Assembly: GCA_963765085.1 (NCBI GenBank)
Contig: CAVXVL010000037.1
Coordinates: 29,852 to 93,851, forward strand
Direction of reading: 5' to 3'
DNA length: 64,000 nucleotides
Source: Terriglobia bacterium
Lineage (GTDB): Bacteria; Acidobacteriota; Terriglobia; Bryobacterales; Bryobacteraceae
Of this stretch, positions 35,724-45,006 are shown in pieces. The position numbers and the translations under genes are program-made. Positions within the stretch are counted from its first letter, which is position 1. Each line of letters starts with the position of its first letter. The notes under the pieces were generated by a model. The model had not been told where the DNA came from and did no database searches. It saw only the letters and a list, made by a program, of their open reading frames with translations.

Positions 35724-37259
35724 TTAGCGCTCGCGCGATCGCCGGCGGTCTCCGATCAGAGCTGCCGCGCTCAAAGAACTCGCGAGCGCAAGGGCGACGG
35801 ACAGCCACAAGACTGTTCGAAAGCCGTCGACAAAGGCCTCTTCGATCGCTTGCCGTCCTCGTACGTCATCTGTTACCACGGCGGCAAGCTTCCATCGCTG
35901 GCTTTCAATGTTTGCCCGCACGGCGGGGGCGACATTGGAATGATCCAACCGCCGATGCAAACTGCCTTGGAACACGCCGCTCAGCAAGACTCCAAAGATG
36001 GCCACGGAAAGTAAGCCGGCCACACGCGAAACGGCGTTGTTCATGCCCGACGCCGCACCCGCATAACTTTGCTCCACCGCGTCCATCACGGTCGTGGTCA
36101 GGGGAGCCACGCTGATTGCCATGCCGAACCCGAGCGTCATCACGGCCGGGAAGAAAGTCGTCCAGTAAGATCCGCCGATACCCGGAATCGTAAACAGCCC
36201 GAATCCGACGGCGGTAATCAACGGGCCCACGACCAACGGAGCCTTCGCCCCGTAGCGATCGAGAAGTCCGCCGGACCAGCGCGAGAGCAAAAACATCAAG
36301 AGGATGAGGGGCAGAAGGGCGGCTCCCGCCGCCGTGGCCGAGTAGCCTTGGACCTGAATCAAATTAAGCGGGAAAAAGAAAAGAAGGCCGTTGAGCGCGG
36401 AGTACAGAAAAAAGGTCATCAGGCTTGCTCCGCTCAAATTACGGGAGCGGAACATGCCGAGCGGGATCATCGGCGAGCTCGACCGCGCCTCCCAAAACAG
36501 CAGCCCTGCCAAGGCAGCCGTCCCCATTACCCCGGCTCCCGGTTTCGATTCGATCAAGCCAAACACGATTCCGCCCAATCCGAGTGCTGCCAACAGGCCG
36601 CCCAACGCATCGAAGCGCTGATTCGAGGAGCCAGACCGGCTTTCCGGGACCTTCCACAAGGTGAGCAAAACAACAACAAGCCCCACGGGGACGTTAATGA
36701 AAAACACGGATCTCCACGAGCCGTGCTCAACAAACCATCCGCCCAGCACCGGACCGATCGCGGCGGTGATGGAAGTAAAACCGGACCATGTCCCGATCGC
36801 GCGTCCGCGCTGCCCTTCCGGAAAATTGGCGCTAATCAGAGCCAGGCTTCCGGGGACGAGCAGCGCGCCTCCCGCTCCTTGGACGCCTCGGGCGACGATG
36901 AGCTGACCGATATTGGACGCAATCCCGCACCAAGCCGAGGCTGCCGAAAATACAACGACGCCGATTACAAAAATCTTGCGGCGGCCGTACAAGTCTCCCA
37001 AGGATCCACCAACGAGCAGGAGCGCCGCCAGAAACAGCGCGTAGGATTCCACAACCCATTGAACCTGTGCCAGCGTCGCGCCGAGAGCCGATTGAATCGC
37101 CGCCAACGCGACATTCACGACCGTTCCGTCGATGAACGCCATGCTGGAGCCGAGGATGGTCGCCGCCAGAATCCAAGGTCCGTTGTTTGTTTCGGGACTC
37201 TCGCAATGGCCCGCGAGGATCGCGGCTTCGGCGCACGGAGGCCGGACGATACTGGCCAT
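35724..37259 (-). CDS. MFS transporter, DHA2 (EmrB/QacA, 14-TMS) family
   Basis: 511 aa, 14 hydrophobic segments, motifs [11 protein letters not shown] and GAGGALLVP. Confidence 0.85.
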
Positions 37260-37376
37260 ACTTCATTCTCCGCCAGACAAAATCGGATCGGTAAGGGCCG
37301 AGGCCCACCACATGATTGCAGCGGTGCGTGGATACTCTATATGCTGGTTGGGCCGCTCGAACGGCAGGGAGCTCGT

Positions 37377-37847
37377 ATGTCCTCAAAACGTAACGTGAAC
37401 GCTGCCACGCGACGCCGCAGTTTGGCTAGTTTGGCCGGGATGGCCGCGTTTGCTTCGGCGACCAAAATAGCCTGGAGCGCAGAGCCCCAGTCCGGTGTGC
37501 CACAAAGCGGTTCGATGATCAAGCGAGCTTCGCTGCTCGCGCGAAAACCGGGGACGTCTCACGAACAGTTCGTGAAGCACTGGGTCGAGGTGCACGCGCC
37601 GATGGCCCGCGCCTGCCCTGGTATCAGCCGTTATATACTCACGATCGTCAAATCCGCCTCGACGCGCAAAGACGTGGCGCCCATTGAAATCCAGGTCGAC
37701 GGCATTGCCGAGTTGTGGTTCAAAGATCAGGCGGCATTCGATTTGTATCAGAACTCGCCGGCCACCAAACGGCTTCGTGACGATGGAGCGACCTTCATCG
37801 GCCGCGAAATCGATTTCGTCACTGAGGAAAAGGTCGTCATTTCGTAA
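37377..37847 (+). CDS. EthD-domain protein with twin-arginine leader
   Basis: ATG 37377 after AGGGAG. Leader TRRRSLASLAGMAAFASA. EthD-like core FVKHWVEVHAPMA...IAELWF...F. The 592-aa ORF 36069..37847 is otherwise antisense to the MFS gene. Confidence 0.7.
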   Translation: MSSKRNVNAATRRRSLASLAGMAAFASATKIAWSAEPQSGVPQSGSMIKRASLLARKPGTSHEQFVKHWVEVHAPMARACPGISRYILTIVKSASTRKDVAPIEIQVDGIAELWFKDQAAFDLYQNSPATKRLRDDGATFIGREIDFVTEEKVVIS

Positions 37848-37957
37848 AATCGCCCGAACGCGGTCTTTTGTCCGGTTCACCTCGTTCGCGATAGATAGTT
37901 GCTTAAAAGTCGGGCGAAGACTGTATACTTACTTCAAACTGCCATCTTGGAGGGCCA

Positions 37958-39043
37958 ATGGAGAGTCGTCGCTCTTTTTTTCAAGATGTAGCGATCCTCT
38001 CGGCTCTTGCCGCGGCGTTTGCCGGCGAGGTCGAGGCCCAGCCTGCCGCGAAAAAGACGCAGGAATTCTGGGATGAGTACTTCGACGAGGCCGAACGCAC
38101 GGACGATCGGACCAGCCGAGGAGCCACAGGGCCTACGACGCTGGATCCGAAAAAGATCGCGAACTTTCTGCAAGGAACCGACAACGGCCTTCGGTTTTCG
38201 AGCGATATCGCCAATACCGAGCTGATGGCTCCTCCGAGTCCGGAGAAGGACGTCGTGGTTACGGTAACCCCCGGCGTTTTTCGCCCGAGCACAGACGATC
38301 ATTCACGCATCCAGGAGGCCCGGGGATCCCAAGTGCGCGTCGATTGGTTTCAGAAGCAACCCTTGATGAACCTGGTGTCCCCCATGGCGTGGGCCGGTCT
38401 GGCGGCCTGGTCCCCGAACCGGAACGACCCGATGACGAAAAAGCCGAAGGCCGCGCCTCTGCCCCCGGACCTCACAGGTCTGAATTTTCGCGACCCGAAC
38501 TCGCCTGATGCGCCGGCCAATAATCAAGTCATTCTGATGGGAGGCTCGGGCAAGATGGCGGTCAACGTCAACGCCGTGCGTCACAACGACAAAGTCGATG
38601 CGGCGCTGAAAGCAACCGTCGACTACTCGTCGATTGTGGCGCCCTACTTCGGATTTGCTCCGCTCGCCATTCCGGCCCTCCGGGCTTTCACTCAGCTGAT
38701 CGGTTATCTTTATCACCGCGAATACGTGCTCATGAATTCGGTCCCTGTGAACATCGTGGCAACTCAGGACGCCGGATCGAACGACGGCTCCGCGAACAAG
38801 GTGAAGATGGTCAGCGGCCAATATCTGGCGGTGCCGGATGAACATCTCGACAGGCTCAAGAGTTCCATGCCGCAGCTCCGCATCGACGATACCGGCTGGC
38901 TGGTGCATCAGGATTCCGACAAGAATGCAAAGCCCGCGGAACGAGGAGCGGATCCGAAAGTGCCGGACGCCACTTACATGTCCATGAATGTGAAGGTCAG
39001 CCTGCTGAGCGACGCGATGAAGGAAAAGGCAAAAGGCGCTTAG
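37958..39043 (+). CDS. Tat-exported protein of unknown function
   Basis: Leader SRRSFFQDVAILSALAAAFAG, 361 aa, no domain I can recognise. Convergent with the caspase gene. Confidence 0.55.
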   Translation: MESRRSFFQDVAILSALAAAFAGEVEAQPAAKKTQEFWDEYFDEAERTDDRTSRGATGPTTLDPKKIANFLQGTDNGLRFSSDIANTELMAPPSPEKDVVVTVTPGVFRPSTDDHSRIQEARGSQVRVDWFQKQPLMNLVSPMAWAGLAAWSPNRNDPMTKKPKAAPLPPDLTGLNFRDPNSPDAPANNQVILMGGSGKMAVNVNAVRHNDKVDAALKATVDYSSIVAPYFGFAPLAIPALRAFTQLIGYLYHREYVLMNSVPVNIVATQDAGSNDGSANKVKMVSGQYLAVPDEHLDRLKSSMPQLRIDDTGWLVHQDSDKNAKPAERGADPKVPDATYMSMNVKVSLLSDAMKEKAKGA

Positions 39044-39121
39044 GCCCGGGAATCGGGCGATTGCTGGAGGATTTCAGAGCTGTCGGTTCGCTGCTCAATA
39101 TCAGGAAGCGAAATCGGCCGG

Positions 39122-41551
39122 TCACTTCGGAACGCTGAGAATTGGCACTTGTTCCAGGCCCCAGGTTGTGGGAACGGCCGGGTTGCGCAAGGAGCCTCTC
39201 GTTCCTGAAGCACCGACATCCGATAGCAACTGAGTCAAGCGATCCTGATACTCGATTCCGCGGGACGCGCCCTTGGTTCGAACGCCGTCAAACTCAAAAA
39301 TCCGGGGATCTTCGATGGGCTGCTTCGACGTCAACAGAAAGTAGGTGTCGACGCCGTACGGTTCGGCGACTTCGAAATCGTAGTCTTGATTTTCGGTCAC
39401 TTGAATTTCAGGCTGAATATCCCTGCGATCGTTCTTCTTTCTCGGGAATTGATTTCCCGCGTTGCCTTCTCCGAGTGCCGGAAAAAGCAGGGTTCCCTTC
39501 CCGTAACCATCGATCGCGAAAATATAGATCCACCGATCGGCGACGCCGCGTCGAATGTCATCCTCGGATGCGCGCAGATACATCTTATAGCGAAGGCCGC
39601 CCTTCATCTCGTTGCCGGTAACGAAGCCGGTTTTGGCTTTGCCCACTTCGCGAAAGGCAAGATGATACGGAAATGCCGACGCAGTCTCCGCGCCTTCTGG
39701 AGGGGCGAGCAGCGTAAGCCATGCTCTCAGCCGGCCCAAGCGAAGCACATGGACGGTCAGATCGCTGGCGGCCCGATGGACGGACTCGGGCGGCTCACCG
39801 AACGCGATCCAATCGGTTCGCAGAGGCAGCGGCAAGCGTTCGGCTGCACCTTTTTCGGTCGCCATTTTTCGAACGCTCTCTTCGGTTGCGTCGATCTGGA
39901 CCCACGCATACTCCACGCCGGATGCGCCGGCGCGGCCCAGGAGCCGATACTGATCGCCGCCCGGCTGCTGCAGGATCTTGACGCTCGAACCACCGCCGGT
40001 GAGTTTGAGTTCATCCACTAATTCAGGCGTCGGCGGCAGGATGAGCAGGAAATTCGTATTCTTCTCGATGCGGGCGCGGACCTGGTCCGCAGTCGGATTC
40101 ATCCCTAGCCGCAGCGGAATCCCCGACGCGGGATTCTTCTCGATCAGCCACTCTTTCCCGTCCCAATGCATCACTTGCCCGGGAGTTTTTTCCGTGGAAT
40201 CGCTGACCCAGCGAACGGACTTATCACCGCGCAGTTTGCCGATCTCAGCCGCGACGTTCGAAACCACCGCCGCAGGCGCCGTGGGAGGCAGATAAACGCT
40301 CAACATCGGATCGTCCGGAATCACCCACCGGTCGACTTCAAAAACATCGTTCTTGTGGATGGTTCCAGCACCTTCGATCTTTTGCGCCTCAGACCGCACC
40401 AGATCGAGCGACGAAGTAACCCGAATCTCTATCGGACTCTCCGTACTCAAAATCCGTTTCATCTCGCAGCCTTGGTAGATCCCGATCGCCTTTCCACCGC
40501 GCAAAATGATCTTCCCGTCATTGCCGATGGAATCGACAACGGCCGTCGTGGAACTGACCGCGCTGGCGGGCAGTCCGAAAAGAGTGATGCCGTGGACATC
40601 TTTTCCTTTCAATTCGGGCTGCTGCGCAAAGTTATCGGTTTTCAAAAGCGATGCCGCGCGCTGGACGACGAGGTCGGCAGGTTGATCGAGCCCCTGTTCA
40701 AGAGCCTTTCTCAACGCCCAAGTGAATGCGCCGTGCTGACCCTCCGGCGTATCCGGATTCTCCTGCGCGGGTTCATCGTCTTGCGAGGCAGCCAGAAAAA
40801 CGACGCCCGCGTCGACGGGATTAATCTCTTTGCCGGTTGCGGGATCCTTATCGGCTGGATCGTCGATCTGGACTGGATACGGTTTCGCGTCGGGAGCGGG
40901 CGCGCCCCGCGCGGTTCGGGTCATGCCGCGCTCATTCCAAACTCCGCGCGATAATCCGCCGCTATGGCAGCTATCGGCGATGAAAATCACCTTCACGCCC
41001 TTCTTGCCCGCCTTCCACAAAATTCGCGAGAGTTCCTTGTCCCGGATATCGGGAACATCGCCTTTGTAGTGATCCGCGGGAACGATGGTCTGATCGAGCT
41101 TATATCTCTCGTTGGTCGCTTCGTTCCGGACCGTGCTGCCGTGGCCGGAATAGTAGACGACGCGAATATCGCCCTTGACCGTTTCATCGATCAGTTTCCG
41201 CTGAAGAGTTGCCAGAATCGCATTGGCGGTTGCATCCTGATTTTTCAACACCGCAATATCTTTAAAACCTAATTTGTCCGACGACAGAATGCTTTCGATA
41301 AGCTCAATATCCTTGACCGCTCCTTGAAGATCGGGAAAAATCCACGCCGACCAATTTCCTCGCGCGGACGGCCTTTTCACCATCGGCGTCGTGTCCTTGG
41401 ACGCAGACGGATTCTTAGGGTTGTAGACATCGATCCCGATCAGCACCGCGCTTTTTTGCTCGGCCGCGAAGACACCCACGAAGGGGATGAGAAAGAGCAG
41501 AACAAACGGCCACAGCCGCCGATTTCGAATCCGTGGACGGGAGAGTGCCAT
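39122..41551 (-). CDS. secreted peptidase C14 (caspase-fold) protein with C-terminal DUF4384-like module
   Basis: Signal/anchor RRLWPFVLLFLIPFVGVFAA. Catalytic His (VYYSGHGS) and Cys (FIADSCHSGG) are intact. The C-terminus (YKMYLRASEDD...WIYIFAIDGYGKGTLLFP...DTYFLLTS) resembles DUF4384. Confidence 0.85.
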   Translation of the reverse strand: MALSRPRIRNRRLWPFVLLFLIPFVGVFAAEQKSAVLIGIDVYNPKNPSASKDTTPMVKRPSARGNWSAWIFPDLQGAVKDIELIESILSSDKLGFKDIAVLKNQDATANAILATLQRKLIDETVKGDIRVVYYSGHGSTVRNEATNERYKLDQTIVPADHYKGDVPDIRDKELSRILWKAGKKGVKVIFIADSCHSGGLSRGVWNERGMTRTARGAPAPDAKPYPVQIDDPADKDPATGKEINPVDAGVVFLAASQDDEPAQENPDTPEGQHGAFTWALRKALEQGLDQPADLVVQRAASLLKTDNFAQQPELKGKDVHGITLFGLPASAVSSTTAVVDSIGNDGKIILRGGKAIGIYQGCEMKRILSTESPIEIRVTSSLDLVRSEAQKIEGAGTIHKNDVFEVDRWVIPDDPMLSVYLPPTAPAAVVSNVAAEIGKLRGDKSVRWVSDSTEKTPGQVMHWDGKEWLIEKNPASGIPLRLGMNPTADQVRARIEKNTNFLLILPPTPELVDELKLTGGGSSVKILQQPGGDQYRLLGRAGASGVEYAWVQIDATEESVRKMATEKGAAERLPLPLRTDWIAFGEPPESVHRAASDLTVHVLRLGRLRAWLTLLAPPEGAETASAFPYHLAFREVGKAKTGFVTGNEMKGGLRYKMYLRASEDDIRRGVADRWIYIFAIDGYGKGTLLFPALGEGNAGNQFPRKKNDRRDIQPEIQVTENQDYDFEVAEPYGVDTYFLLTSKQPIEDPRIFEFDGVRTKGASRGIEYQDRLTQLLSDVGASGTRGSLRNPAVPTTWGLEQVPILSVPK

Positions 41552-41587
41552 GGCGCGAATTTTACCAATATTTACGGAGGAGTTTAA

Positions 41588-42796
41588 TCATGACAGCTCC
41601 CGGCTCGCTTGCGCGGCAGGTGCTTCGGATGCGTCGTGCGCAGGCTCGGCGTGGGCCTTCCACTTTGCCAACTCTTTCACAAGTTTTCGATGTTCGATCG
41701 CATGCTCCATGGTGAATTCCACCAACTTATGAAAGAACATCCCGAGCAAAACCGGAACAAAGCTAAAGAAATACCCAGAGGTGCTGAAGGCGGCGACACT
41801 GAGCAGGATGGCAAAGAAAGGTATCAGGAAAAAAGATAAAAGCAGTACCCAAATCCGGTGCAGGAACCAGGTCGCCGTGAGCAAGCATATGCCGAGCGTC
41901 AAGTCGATTCCGAGGAAGACCTCCGGCGTGGGCGAGGTAATTTTTTTCTCCATCGAAGAGATTGTCAGAGCGAGGATATCCACGCCATCCAGATAGCCAA
42001 CGGGCGTAACGTATTTGTCGCGCGCGGCGCGATACGATCCTCCGATGAGCGCGATCCTGTCTTTCAACGGGTTGGAATTTCGCCAGGCTTCCGCAGTCGC
42101 AGCTTTTACGACTGTTTCAGCGGAAACGTGCGGAAACGAGACGCCGCCGCCCGCATAATTCACGAGCTTCTCCTGGTCTGAATCGCTATCGGACGGCACG
42201 ACCGAGAAGCTCGGAGGATTGCACGCCAGTGAAAGATTCAAGTCCAACTGTTCGATCACAAATGCGAAATTCCCGGCCGCGATCATTTGACCCTGTCGTT
42301 CCTCGCGCATGACGGGAACGTAGCCGCGAACCACGCCGTATTCGTCCGGCATGGAAGCCGGTACACCCTGGCAGGCGGGCGACGTCAATCCCTTCAATTC
42401 GTCGAGGTGCGATGATTTTGTGGCCGGGTCGTACGATCCGCCGACCGCCCAGGCGAGCCTCGGGGCGCTGCCGGAAGGCGACGACGCCGTGACGGCGGCG
42501 ACTAGATTCATTCGCTCTTCCGCCGTCCAATCGGACGTGTCAAGATCGACGGCGATTACCTTTGCGCCTGAAAGAGCGCACGCCCGCACCAGTTCCAGCA
42601 CCGTCTGCGGAGACAGTGGACTCTTGTTCCCGAACATCTCCTCGTAGTCGGTATCCGTGACGGAAACCACAACGATATTCGCGGATTCGGGCGGCCTTTT
42701 CTGACTCAGAAACAGGACATCGAGATTCGTCATCTCGAGGTTCCTCAGCACGTCGTGCCTGTGCAGATACCAGGAGAACGCGCCGATGACAAGCAC
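41588..42796 (-). CDS. CHASE2-domain membrane protein without a cytoplasmic output domain
   Basis: GTG start. Periplasmic region with CHASE2-like blocks (IVVVSVTDTDYEE, AKVIAVDL, RIALIGGSY...D.Y.TP), followed by three TM helices and a tail of only ~45 aa. Confidence 0.7.
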   Translation of the reverse strand: MLVIGAFSWYLHRHDVLRNLEMTNLDVLFLSQKRPPESANIVVVSVTDTDYEEMFGNKSPLSPQTVLELVRACALSGAKVIAVDLDTSDWTAEERMNLVAAVTASSPSGSAPRLAWAVGGSYDPATKSSHLDELKGLTSPACQGVPASMPDEYGVVRGYVPVMREERQGQMIAAGNFAFVIEQLDLNLSLACNPPSFSVVPSDSDSDQEKLVNYAGGGVSFPHVSAETVVKAATAEAWRNSNPLKDRIALIGGSYRAARDKYVTPVGYLDGVDILALTISSMEKKITSPTPEVFLGIDLTLGICLLTATWFLHRIWVLLLSFFLIPFFAILLSVAAFSTSGYFFSFVPVLLGMFFHKLVEFTMEHAIEHRKLVKELAKWKAHAEPAHDASEAPAAQASRELS

Positions 42797-42863
42797 GAGA
42801 GCAATCCCGGAGGAGAAGTGCCGCCAGGCGGAACGACCCGGTTCGTGGTCCGAATTCCAGAAG

Positions 42864-43676
42864 CTACTTGGCAGGCGCTAACCTCTCTGAAAGTTGCATC
42901 AGCACGGCCGCAAGATAATCGTGCCGCGCGGAGGCCATGTCATCCGGCCAACCGCTAGAGACTTGCGCCGCGTTAACAAAATCGGTTCGTAGGACCGCTG
43001 CCTGACGAGGAGTGGTGACGAGCACCACGATCGGCCTGCCTCCCGGCATCAACTGAAGCGTGTACAGGCCCGCCCGAATCGAAGGACCTTTCGCGAGGGC
43101 TTTCGGCGGTTCCCAGCGAAGGCCGAGTGGAACGACTCTACTGTCCTCTCCCAGCGATGTCAATTCCGCATCGAAAACTCCTCGCTCCAGGCCCGCGAGC
43201 GCCGGAGCGAAATCGGGCATGCCTCCCTGGAGGGCGAGCACGCTTTCTCGCGCGTCCACAGAGGAAATTTGGATTCCGCGGCTCATCGTGAAAACGGGCG
43301 CAGGAGATGCGGAAATCGTGAGTCGGCTCCAGATCGCCTGCATACGCTGTGGGATCGTACGATCGGCCGTTGTCAGACTGACTTCCAACGGTTGAGCGCA
43401 TTCGTTGGGCGCGCTTCTACAGTCCCGACTTCCCACTGTTCCATCGAGCAGACCAACATGGATATAGGCGCCGGCCGGTTCTCCCCGCAGCGCCACCACG
43501 TCATGGTTGTGTAGCGCCATGCCGCGCACAAGACCGGAAGCGTATTGCGGAGCGATCCGCCAGTCGCCCTGGATCTCGAAAACGTAGGCGACGGTGTTAT
43601 CGGGGGTCGTTTGGCCGAACGCGCAGCAGGCCGCGAAACAGATCCCCGAAAACAGCAGCCGTGAAGAGCGGTTCAT
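42864..43676 (-). CDS. secreted protein, N-terminal FecR-like beta-sandwich (tentative)
   Basis: ATG 43676; signal peptide MNRSSRLLFSGICFAACCAFGQ. The segment AYVFEIQGDWRIAP...GMALHNHDVVALRGEPAGAYIHVGLLDGTV resembles the FecR domain pattern. Confidence 0.5.
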   Translation of the reverse strand: MNRSSRLLFSGICFAACCAFGQTTPDNTVAYVFEIQGDWRIAPQYASGLVRGMALHNHDVVALRGEPAGAYIHVGLLDGTVGSRDCRSAPNECAQPLEVSLTTADRTIPQRMQAIWSRLTISASPAPVFTMSRGIQISSVDARESVLALQGGMPDFAPALAGLERGVFDAELTSLGEDSRVVPLGLRWEPPKALAKGPSIRAGLYTLQLMPGGRPIVVLVTTPRQAAVLRTDFVNAAQVSSGWPDDMASARHDYLAAVLMQLSERLAPAK

Positions 43677-43919
43677 GATGCGAGCGGAACCAGCCGCGCA
43701 GCAATTGAATATGGCCAATCGCGGAATCGTGGTTTCCGATCCACGAATTCGTATTGCTGCCGTTGGGCTATTCTGCCATTTTCGACGGTATCGAATCAAC
43801 TAACAGTGTCCCGGCGCCGCCGCTCAAGGAATCGGCACAGGCCCCGCAATCGGATTCACGAGAGCGGGGCGTCTATCGATAATGGCCTCGCAGCCTCCCG
43901 TGCTGTGCATAATGAACGC

Positions 43920-44468
43920 ATGGCGCTTTCATTCACAACCTCGTGCCTCGAGGACTCACTGAGCCTTTTCCGCCAATACCAACGGCTTTCGGAAAGAGCG
44001 ATCGAACAAGCGACGGACGCACAACTCCTCATCCATCTCGACCAGGAGTCGAACTCCATCGCGCTCATCGTGAAGCATCTGTCCGGGAATTTGCGTTCGC
44101 GTTGGACGGATTTCCTGACGACTGACGGGGAAAAACCCGATCGCGACCGCGATCGTGAATTTCTGGAACCACCCGCCACGCGCGCGGAGCTTCTCAAAAT
44201 GTGGACGGAGGGCTGGGATTGCCTCTACCTCGCGGTCGGTCAGCTCACCGAAGCCGATCTCTCCCGCACGATTTATATCCGTGGGGAAGCGCATTCGGTG
44301 ATGCAGGCGATCCATCGCGCGGTGGGACATTGCGCCTATCATTGCGGGCAGATCGTGATGCTCGCCAAACACTTGAACAGCACGCACTGGCAAACGCTCA
44401 CCGTGCCGCGCGGTAAATCGAAGGAATATCACCAGCAGGTCAGCCGCGGCGAAAAATCACAACGTTAG
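43920..44468 (+). CDS. DinB-superfamily (DUF1572-like) protein
   Basis: ATG 43920. Four-helix-bundle pattern with the conserved His triad context (IVKHLSGN, HRAVGHCAYHCGQIV). Confidence 0.65.
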   Translation: MALSFTTSCLEDSLSLFRQYQRLSERAIEQATDAQLLIHLDQESNSIALIVKHLSGNLRSRWTDFLTTDGEKPDRDRDREFLEPPATRAELLKMWTEGWDCLYLAVGQLTEADLSRTIYIRGEAHSVMQAIHRAVGHCAYHCGQIVMLAKHLNSTHWQTLTVPRGKSKEYHQQVSRGEKSQR

Positions 44469-44472
44469 CGAT

Positions 44473-45006
44473 TTACTTCGCGTCCGAGCAAACCGGACCC
44501 AGCCATTTGGAGGTTCCGGAAATGTTCATGTTCATATTGGTGGCCTTGCCGTCGCCACCGCTTGCAACCACGGCAAACTTCATGGACTCGGGGCTGAGCG
44601 CCTCAATCGTCATCGTGCCGGACTGTTTCTTTCCGCCGTGATCGCAATCCACCTGAATCACCTGCTTACTGGAGGACGAGCTCAGCACGTTGGTCTTGCA
44701 GTTTGCGTCGTTGTTCAGAGGCAGCCGGGTGAGATCTTCCTTCTTCGTGCAGGACTTCGAAGTCGCCGTCCGCGGGGCGCCGTTCATCTGCGCCATCATG
44801 GCTTGCAGCTTGGCGCGCTGTTCGGGCGGAATCTGAGCGAGCTGCTCGGGCGTGAGCTGCGGCATCTGATGCGCCTGTTGCGCCATGCCGGTAATCTGGG
44901 TGGTCACCGTGGTTTCCCACTGTCCAATCTTGACGTCCATGGGAACGAGATCGGCGGCCCAAACCGCGGGGGCGGCGACGAAAATGAGGGCGAGCGAAAA
45001 CTTCAT
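44473..45006 (-). CDS. DUF3617-family secreted protein
   Basis: ATG 45006 after GGAGGA; signal peptide. Family pattern GQWE...C.KKED...C...C.HGG..Q.G...W.GP.C. Confidence 0.7.
   Translation of the reverse strand: MKFSLALIFVAAPAVWAADLVPMDVKIGQWETTVTTQITGMAQQAHQMPQLTPEQLAQIPPEQRAKLQAMMAQMNGAPRTATSKSCTKKEDLTRLPLNNDANCKTNVLSSSSSKQVIQVDCDHGGKKQSGTMTIEALSPESMKFAVVASGGDGKATNMNMNISGTSKWLGPVCSDAK

Follow-up and report, generated by a model that had tools for sequence, protein, structure and literature searches.

Gene neighborhoods link a stand-alone CHASE2 protein and its small partner to predicted exported caspase-fold proteases

A 64,000-nucleotide stretch of the genome of a Terriglobia bacterium (Bryobacteraceae, Acidobacteriota; GenBank assembly GCA_963765085.1, contig CAVXVL010000037.1, positions 29,852 to 93,851 of the forward strand; hereafter, the window) contains three co-directional minus-strand open reading frames (ORFs), designated A, B, and C (Table 1), which are predicted to encode a small exported protein, a membrane protein with a CHASE2 domain and no enzymatic output, and an exported caspase-like peptidase, respectively. 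Comparison of gene neighborhoods supports a functional link between these three kinds of protein, and the association of the A-B pair with putatively exported caspase-fold proteases appears robust, broader than first proposed, and not specific to the family of C. We consider the chances about even that A and B form a conserved envelope module of which a Sec-exported caspase-fold protease is the functional partner and output. All parts of the module in the window, except for the short tail of B, are predicted to lie outside the cytoplasm.

The three genes had been singled out in an earlier note, made from the DNA letters alone, as a possible envelope proteolytic module. That observation was largely right: its core idea, the coupling of an extracytoplasmic caspase-type protease to an output-less CHASE2 protein, was upheld by gene neighborhoods in a wider form, while a FecR-like label for A found no support and the notion of a fixed three-gene operon was wrong. 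The layout that it described, with intergenic gaps of 67 nucleotides between A and B and 36 nucleotides between B and C, agreed exactly with the ORF coordinates. Profile hidden Markov model searches with the four families that it had named gave significant matches to Peptidase_C14 and CHASE2, no match to FecR, and a match to DUF4384 that scored below the cutoff.

Table 1. Genes and features of the window, with positions counted from its first nucleotide
Feature	Position	Strand	Description	Basis
Gene A	42864..43676	-	Predicted exported protein of 270 amino acids; unannotated family	ORF, signal-like N terminus, AlphaFold2, HMMER
Linker motif of A (residues 131-136)	43269..43286	-	[SA]-R-[GS] motif containing Arg133	
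Gene B	41588..42874 (mechanical ORF 41588..42796, from GTG 42796)	-	Stand-alone CHASE2 membrane protein	Pfam, hydropathy, AlphaFold2
Gene C	39122..41551	-	Predicted Sec-exported 809-amino-acid Peptidase_C14 protein of the orthocaspase/metacaspase type	Pfam, family alignment
Gene D	37958..39043	+	Predicted Tat-exported protein of 361 amino acids, convergent with C; conserved twin-arginine signal	
ORF portion just upstream of D	37400..37847 (3' part of ORF 36069..37847)	+	Protein of ~150 amino acids with a Tat-like signal	

Gene neighborhoods of the CHASE2 gene

The neighborhoods of B homologs were compared in 64 metagenome loci. Where at least 400 nucleotides upstream of B were available for judgment (46 loci), a homolog of A was located directly upstream, co-directional and often overlapping, in 43. 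A gene for a caspase-fold protein, with either a C14 or a CHAT domain, abutted the A-B pair in 25 of 28 loci, a count that takes in short-flanked loci whenever a match fell within the flank; under a strict count, with at least 1.5 kb on both flanks, the proportion was 11 of 14. When B sequences were clustered at an identity of at least 60%, 17 of the 30 resulting lineages had a caspase-fold neighbor, 11 lay on contigs of ∼4 kb or less, which are too short to judge, and only two assessable lineages (L088/L150 and L090/L101) had none. On the same contigs, protease ORFs were ∼5-fold denser at distances of up to 3.5 kb from A-B (1.34 per 10 kb) than beyond (0.28 per 10 kb).

Both the type and the orientation of the protease differ between loci. 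According to Pfam, the partners are (i) TPR-CHAT or CHAT proteins of ∼930 to 1,146 amino acids encoded just upstream of A-B on the same strand, those of the TPR-CHAT type measuring ∼1,060 to 1,140 amino acids, (ii) CHAT (602 to 1,134 amino acids) or C14 (389 to 455 amino acids) proteins encoded convergently 3 to 41 nucleotides downstream of A-B, and (iii) in one case, a C14-pentapeptide protein of 810 amino acids, whose co-directional gene overlaps B at its stop codon. Of the partner-protease N termini that were read, most resemble signal peptides.

Genes of the C family were found near A-B in four arrangements: A, B, and C in succession in the window; C divergent from an operon of A, B, D, a gene X, and a C14 gene, in which D is encoded together with A-B (L002); C, one intervening gene, and then A-B (L003, L084, and L151); and, in the closest relative of the window (L147; identities of 59% for A, 71% for B, and 74% for C), C separated from A-B by 8.6 kb and three genes. 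The order A, B, and C14, with all three genes co-directional, recurs in L112, where B is only 27% identical.

The CHASE2 protein and its start codon

The earlier note had assigned to B a CHASE2 domain, three transmembrane (TM) helices, and a cytoplasmic tail of ∼45 amino acids, without a kinase, cyclase, or GGDEF output, and all of these features were recovered. The match to CHASE2 (PF05226) was strong (E = 5.6e-22; 79 bits versus a cutoff of 26.3), and Pfam detected no further domain. Counted from the GTG at 42796, B has 402 amino acids, with hydrophobic segments at residues 293 to 311, 317 to 335, and 343 to 361, followed by a C-terminal helix. The AlphaFold2 model (predicted local distance difference test [pLDDT] score, 87.2) likewise has helices at residues 291 to 310, 314 to 340, and 347 to 401 and nothing beyond them, such that one long helix is all that comes after the last TM segment. 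The output-less layout is common to 24 aligned homologs (376 to 494 amino acids), the cytoplasmic tail being predicted as helical and ∼41 to 55 amino acids long in most members, with conserved residues H356 and E375 in the C-terminal helix. The CHASE2 domain carries a conserved Cys pair (C142/C192) and an invariant acidic cluster (D84, D86, and D260); a sequence-profile search of the PDB found no solved structure for it. A role for CHASE2 as a caspase-like pseudoenzyme scaffold was considered and rejected: alignment of the CHASE2 and C profiles by hhalign gave a probability of 0.2, and a Foldseek search with the model of B returned no caspase or gingipain and nothing below an E value of 0.16. 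In two B homologs (P0128 and P0129), the cytoplasmic helix is extended by a heptad-like coiled coil of ∼90 amino acids, which was also noted at L151:7001-8473. Such long tails suggest a role in oligomerization or partner binding, rather than an inert extension, in some CHASE2 proteins.

The three C-terminal TM helices of B are clear from both hydropathy and the model. An N-terminal helix (TM1) is also expected, as homologs start ∼20 residues further upstream (MSE..ERSA..HFSTG..) and contain it in full, whereas the GTG start of B cuts into it. The frame is open for 26 codons upstream of the GTG (42797..42874), contains no ATG, GTG, or TTG, and reads RSAWRHFSSGIAL, with the basic and then hydrophobic character expected of TM1; it encodes ..SDHEPGRSAWRHFSSGIAL-VLVIGAFSWYL. 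Alignment with the closest orthologue, from L147, indicates that the ancestral ATG reads AAT in the window. The codons that follow differ from those of the orthologue mostly at synonymous third positions, which implies that they are still translated or were so until very recently. The probable, noncanonical start of B is a CTG at 42874, which is preceded by AGAGAGG at a distance of 7 nucleotides and overlaps the stop codon of A. With initiation at this codon, B would have the canonical CHASE2 topology, with the N terminus inside, the ectodomain outside, three TM helices, and the tail inside.

The loss of the ATG also bears on the possibility that B is decaying, with its start codon lost and TM1 truncated, and that the module is a nonfunctional remnant. 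No ATG, GTG, or TTG is present between the upstream stop codon and the GTG at 42796, and an identical protein (P0123) is recorded with 381 amino acids, which would start at Met22 and lack TM1. Decay of B is nevertheless improbable in our judgment: the 26 open codons encode the expected TM1 with the pattern of synonymous change described above, the CTG with its upstream AGAGAGG is available, and the remainder of the gene is intact, with all family-invariant residues present.

The caspase-like peptidase

C was described in the earlier note as a secreted protein with a signal peptide, an intact caspase His/Cys dyad, and a DUF4384-like C terminus, the first two of which stood without change. The Peptidase_C14 domain (PF00656) spans residues 74 to 315 (E = 2.3e-21; 77 bits versus a cutoff of 21.4) and was matched by all 23 family members searched. 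C contains the motifs YYSGHGS and IADSCHSGG, and the corresponding His137 and Cys195 (SGHG and DSCHSG contexts) are invariant in an alignment of 23 C-family sequences. Each of these sequences also has a hydrophobic N-terminal signal, with the caspase domain starting a few residues later, and the caspase domain is predicted not to be cytoplasmic.

The DUF4384 assignment (PF14326) is weak in C itself, where the match lies at the C terminus (about residues 672 to 745) and scores below the cutoff (E = 0.041; 14.4 bits versus 27). Because 14 of the 23 family members match DUF4384 at an E value of ≤0.01 (best, 8.9e-7), the C-terminal domain of C is likely a divergent DUF4384, by transitive homology. 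The ∼350 amino acids between the caspase domain and the DUF4384 region have no domain match. The family comprises more than 120 full-length homologs of ∼800 amino acids, which are 32 to 78% identical and originate mostly from Acidobacteriota. Metacaspases cut after Arg or Lys, and the DSCHSG-type motif, together with the conserved acidic residues D81 and D193, leads us to infer a putative Arg/Lys specificity at P1 for C.

The small exported partner

The signal peptide claimed for A was borne out by a signal-like N terminus (MNRSSRLLFSGICFAACCAFG|Q), but the FecR-like N-terminal region was not. FecR was absent from Pfam searches of the full protein (E ≤ 1), of 45 family members (E ≤ 0.1), and of 36 isolated N-terminal domains (E ≤ 10), and Foldseek comparison of the whole model of A with the PDB gave nothing below an E value of 0.067, with neither FecR nor PupR in the top 50. 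A belongs to no Pfam (E ≤ 1) or NCBIfam family, the 45 family members share no consistent Pfam family of any kind, and a sequence-profile search of the PDB returned no relevant match. The family is nonetheless sizeable, as an exhaustive HMMER search recovered 222 representative clusters at an E value of ≤1e-3, almost all of 250 to 310 amino acids.

In the AlphaFold2 model (pLDDT, 86.8), the signal peptide is followed by an N-terminal beta domain (residues 28 to 85), a helix (107 to 121), a flexible linker of low confidence, a beta-sandwich (145 to 221), and two C-terminal helices; a Cys86/Cys93 pair is conserved. Only Trp39 and Arg133 are invariant in all 45 family sequences. Arg133 is located at the start of the linker, which is rich in insertions and deletions (pLDDT, ∼56). 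A metacaspase-type (DSCHSG) enzyme might cleave there, with Arg133 as the P1 residue, or this Arg could just as well meet the acidic cluster of the CHASE2 domain (D84, D86, and D260) at an interface.

Gene neighborhoods of the caspase gene

The surroundings of C homologs were examined, with 10 kb on each side, in 79 genome loci, mostly from Acidobacteriota (Bryobacterales, Terriglobia, Aminicenantes, and Thermoanaerobaculia), with a few from Nitrospira, Rhodothermia, Gemmatimonadales, and Chitinophagaceae. The commonest conserved neighbor of C-family caspases is D, a homolog of which directly adjoins C in ∼27 of the 79 loci, as well as in L001 and in L002, and does so in each of the four possible relative orientations. 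The earlier note had named in advance the absence of a conserved three-gene order in related genomes as grounds for giving up its proposal; neither the A-B pair, nor a homolog of A, nor a close homolog of B was found in any of the 79 loci. With D present in about a third of the loci and A-B in none, D rather than A-B is the usual companion of C. In two Nitrospira metagenome-assembled genomes (L055:309-2871 and L071:1156-3655), a C-family gene divergently adjoins a distantly related stand-alone CHASE2 gene (518 to 540 amino acids; E = 3.6e-21 and 3.7e-17), which is followed by a gene for an exported protein of 321 to 329 amino acids that is weakly A-like (GYVE..G start and SSRG motif), the order being the reverse of that of A and B.

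These counts raise the possibility that the adjacency in the window is incidental, C working with D and A-B having been moved beside C by rearrangement within a "caspase island," where it serves another protease or none. The absence of A-B from the 79 loci and the frequency of D are as this explanation would have it, as are the 8.6 kb and three genes that separate C from A-B in L147 and the presence of C with no A-B nearby in L001. Nevertheless, A-B almost always has a caspase-fold neighbor, and C is the only one in the 64-kb window. Furthermore, the spacing is operon-like, with the 36-nucleotide gap and the probable overlap of A and B; the same layout of A, B, and C14 is found in L112 despite the divergence of B; and C-family genes are again found beside CHASE2 genes in Nitrospira. 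We consider incidental adjacency to be quite unlikely.

Proposed mechanism and alternatives

In the mechanism that we propose, A would be a periplasmic accessory protein and B a membrane-anchored CHASE2 protein without cytoplasmic enzymatic output. The partner protease in the window would be C, with A, B, and C cotranscribed in that order. A and the CHASE2 ectodomain may bind each other, an envelope cue, or both at the periplasmic face of the inner membrane and may tether the adjacent protease, gate it (by activation or inhibition), or feed substrate to it. The output of the CHASE2 sensor would then be extracytoplasmic proteolysis, rather than phosphorylation or cyclic-nucleotide synthesis. 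Cutting at Arg133 could make A a cleavable switch, and D may be a second accessory of C-family caspases that inhibits them, aids their maturation, or serves as their substrate. A more specific version, in which an undescribed class of envelope signaling is formed by CHASE2 control of a periplasmic cysteine protease, with A as a transducer that is cleaved at its invariant Arg, is a possibility that we put forward tentatively and with some doubt.

Several observations weigh against this proposal. First, on the evidence of its neighborhoods, C does not appear to need the A-B pair: the pair is missing within 10 kb in all 79 loci, and around the closest homolog of C (78% identity; L001), no A-B occurs in the 8 kb upstream or the 4 kb downstream. 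Second, a large number of the B-anchored contigs are short, and several of the loci nearly duplicate one another, such that the independent count is below the raw count, and the evidence linking A-B to proteases is that of gene neighborhood throughout. Third, TM1 of B is encoded only upstream of the first canonical start, and initiation at the GTG would make export of the CHASE2 domain doubtful. Fourth, cleavage at Arg133 may not extend to loci in which the partner is a CHAT protease.

The polarity of the system could also be the reverse of that proposed. The protease would then cut A (at Arg133) or the CHASE2 ectodomain and thereby switch B to signal, by way of the TM bundle and the coiled-coil tail, to a cytoplasmic partner, in a process resembling the site-1 cleavage of anti-sigma factors. 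Such a role would suit the invariant Arg of the SRG motif in the flexible linker of A, the metacaspase-type DSCHSG motif of C (cleavage after Arg or Lys being known of the family), and the long C-terminal helix of B, with its conserved H356 and E375 and its extension of ∼90 amino acids in P0128 and P0129. However, no conserved cytoplasmic partner gene was seen beside A-B in any locus examined, the tail comprises only ∼41 to 55 amino acids in most members, and CHAT partners may not be Arg specific. Reverse polarity seems unlikely, and we retain the reading in which the protease is the output of A-B.

A role in programmed cell death, phage defense, or interbacterial conflict, similar to that of cytoplasmic caspase and CHAT systems (EACC, Craspase, and CBASS linked), has by far the smallest chance, in our view. 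Such systems often employ caspase or CHAT effectors (PMC8195603), and the combination of a constant pair with a variable protease cargo resembles their logic of a constant component plus a variable effector. A PADLOC search with A, B, C, and D gave a single match, that of a generic caspase model to C (1.2e-11), leaving A, B, and D without any. Moreover, all parts are predicted to be extracytoplasmic, none of the loci examined showed a defense partner such as an NTPase, a nuclease, TIR, or STAND, and the neighbors are housekeeping or envelope genes.

Gene D and other neighbors

D is predicted to be exported by the twin-arginine translocation (Tat) pathway, and its twin-arginine motif (ESRRSFF) is kept in nearly all of the homologs read. 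Sequence-profile searches found no Pfam, NCBIfam, or PDB match for D. The ORF portion that precedes D on the plus strand (Table 1) encodes a protein with a Tat-like signal (TRRRSLASLAGMAAF).

Near A-B or C, another unit that recurs is that of small exported C14 proteases of 382 to 455 amino acids (L002:2048-4638, L003:4427-6750, L126:11088-13714, L142:10376-13280, and L136:1426-4372). An unannotated protein of ∼350 to 520 amino acids is encoded ahead of each of them within its operon, and the N termini that were read (L002, L003, L108, L126, and L139) contain a Cys-containing helical domain (..GDAWYYRS..). Large outer membrane barrels with CarboxypepD_reg and OMP_b-brl_4 domains, which are TonB receptor-like, also recur beside the modules (L147:6774-9983, L001:13921-17205, and L133:13562-16873), and that of L147 is encoded 18 nucleotides upstream of A on the same strand. 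Their recurrence could be a hint of a trans-envelope system or could be due to chance, TonB receptor-like barrels being very abundant in Acidobacteria. Pfam searches with other recurrent neighbors were uninformative; these encode proteins of 1,048 and 688 amino acids (L147), 479 and 645 amino acids (L002), 353 amino acids (L003), and 385 amino acids (L149).

A scan for promoter and terminator consensus sequences revealed no clear operon boundaries. Terminator-like hairpins were more numerous in positions 37300..44600 of the window (21) than in shuffled sequence (8.9 ± 3.0), with most located within coding sequence and none marking a clear operon end.

Significance and relation to known systems

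CHASE2 was reportedly defined by Zhulin et al. in 2003, and we know of no ligand or partner that has been established for it since. To our knowledge, bacterial caspase homologs have been studied almost exclusively as cytoplasmic death or defense effectors. If the more specific version of the mechanism holds, a molecular partner of CHASE2 would be defined for the first time, and a regulatory logic would be supplied for caspases and CHAT proteases of the periplasm. A-B with its protease also offers a genetically and biochemically simple system, with only three or four proteins that share one side of the membrane, in which to study CHASE2 binding and the control of extracytoplasmic caspase-fold proteases, and the analysis delineates two families without annotation, those of A and D, which are specific to such systems. 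CHAT or caspase genes near CHASE2 genes in cyanobacteria, which the earlier note had named as loose precedents, are a possible further lead. A search of the available literature found no description of a stand-alone CHASE2 protein with an A-type partner beside exported CHAT or C14 proteases, but four groups of known systems are related to the module.

First, proteins in which a caspase domain and CHASE2 are fused are known in cyanobacteria (e.g., the metacaspase-CHASE2 protein of Trichodesmium erythraeum) and in EACC2 systems, with the caspase predicted to be cytoplasmic (PMC3501461, PMC2853523, PMC7475262, PMC8195603). Because such fusions exist, caspase domains are an accepted partner of CHASE2 (PMC3501461, PMC2853523, PMC8195603). 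As in the proposed module, the CHASE2 domain has no kinase or cyclase output, is flanked by one and three TM helices (the single helix being only probable in B), and is coupled to a protease of the caspase fold. Unlike the fusions, which are single polypeptides, the window has separate genes with a 36-nucleotide gap and a protease that is predicted to be Sec exported, to the CHASE2 side of the membrane; in addition, A-B modules have an obligatory further periplasmic partner, A, and their protease may be CHAT instead of C14.

Second, in the Burkholderia "BiofilmReg" operon and its relatives, an exported protein with LysM and FecR domains is encoded directly 5' of a CHASE2 histidine kinase (PMC5192318). 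A occupies the same position, as a small exported protein encoded just upstream of a CHASE2 gene, but it has no detectable FecR or LysM domain, B has no kinase, and an exported protease takes the place of the two-component phosphorelay. Third, the C14-DUF4384 architecture is listed for cyanobacterial orthocaspases (PMC7475262), and exported metacaspases have been predicted earlier from N-terminal helices (PMC3501461). C shares with the orthocaspases an intact His/Cys dyad and, probably, a C-terminal DUF4384 but differs in its signal peptide, in its additional ∼350 conserved amino acids, and in its membership of a mostly acidobacterial family of ∼800-amino-acid proteins that travels with D.

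Fourth, the FecA-FecR-FecI system and the proteolysis of anti-sigma factors likewise involve a periplasmic protein, an inner membrane protein with a short cytoplasmic part, and proteolysis as a signaling step, and TonB receptor-like barrels are found near the module in L147, L001, and L133. The module differs in having no sigma factor, anti-sigma domain, or detectable FecR homology, and the adjacency of the barrels may be due to chance. A-B with an exported protease can be regarded as a variation on the known themes of CHASE2 and of the orthocaspases.

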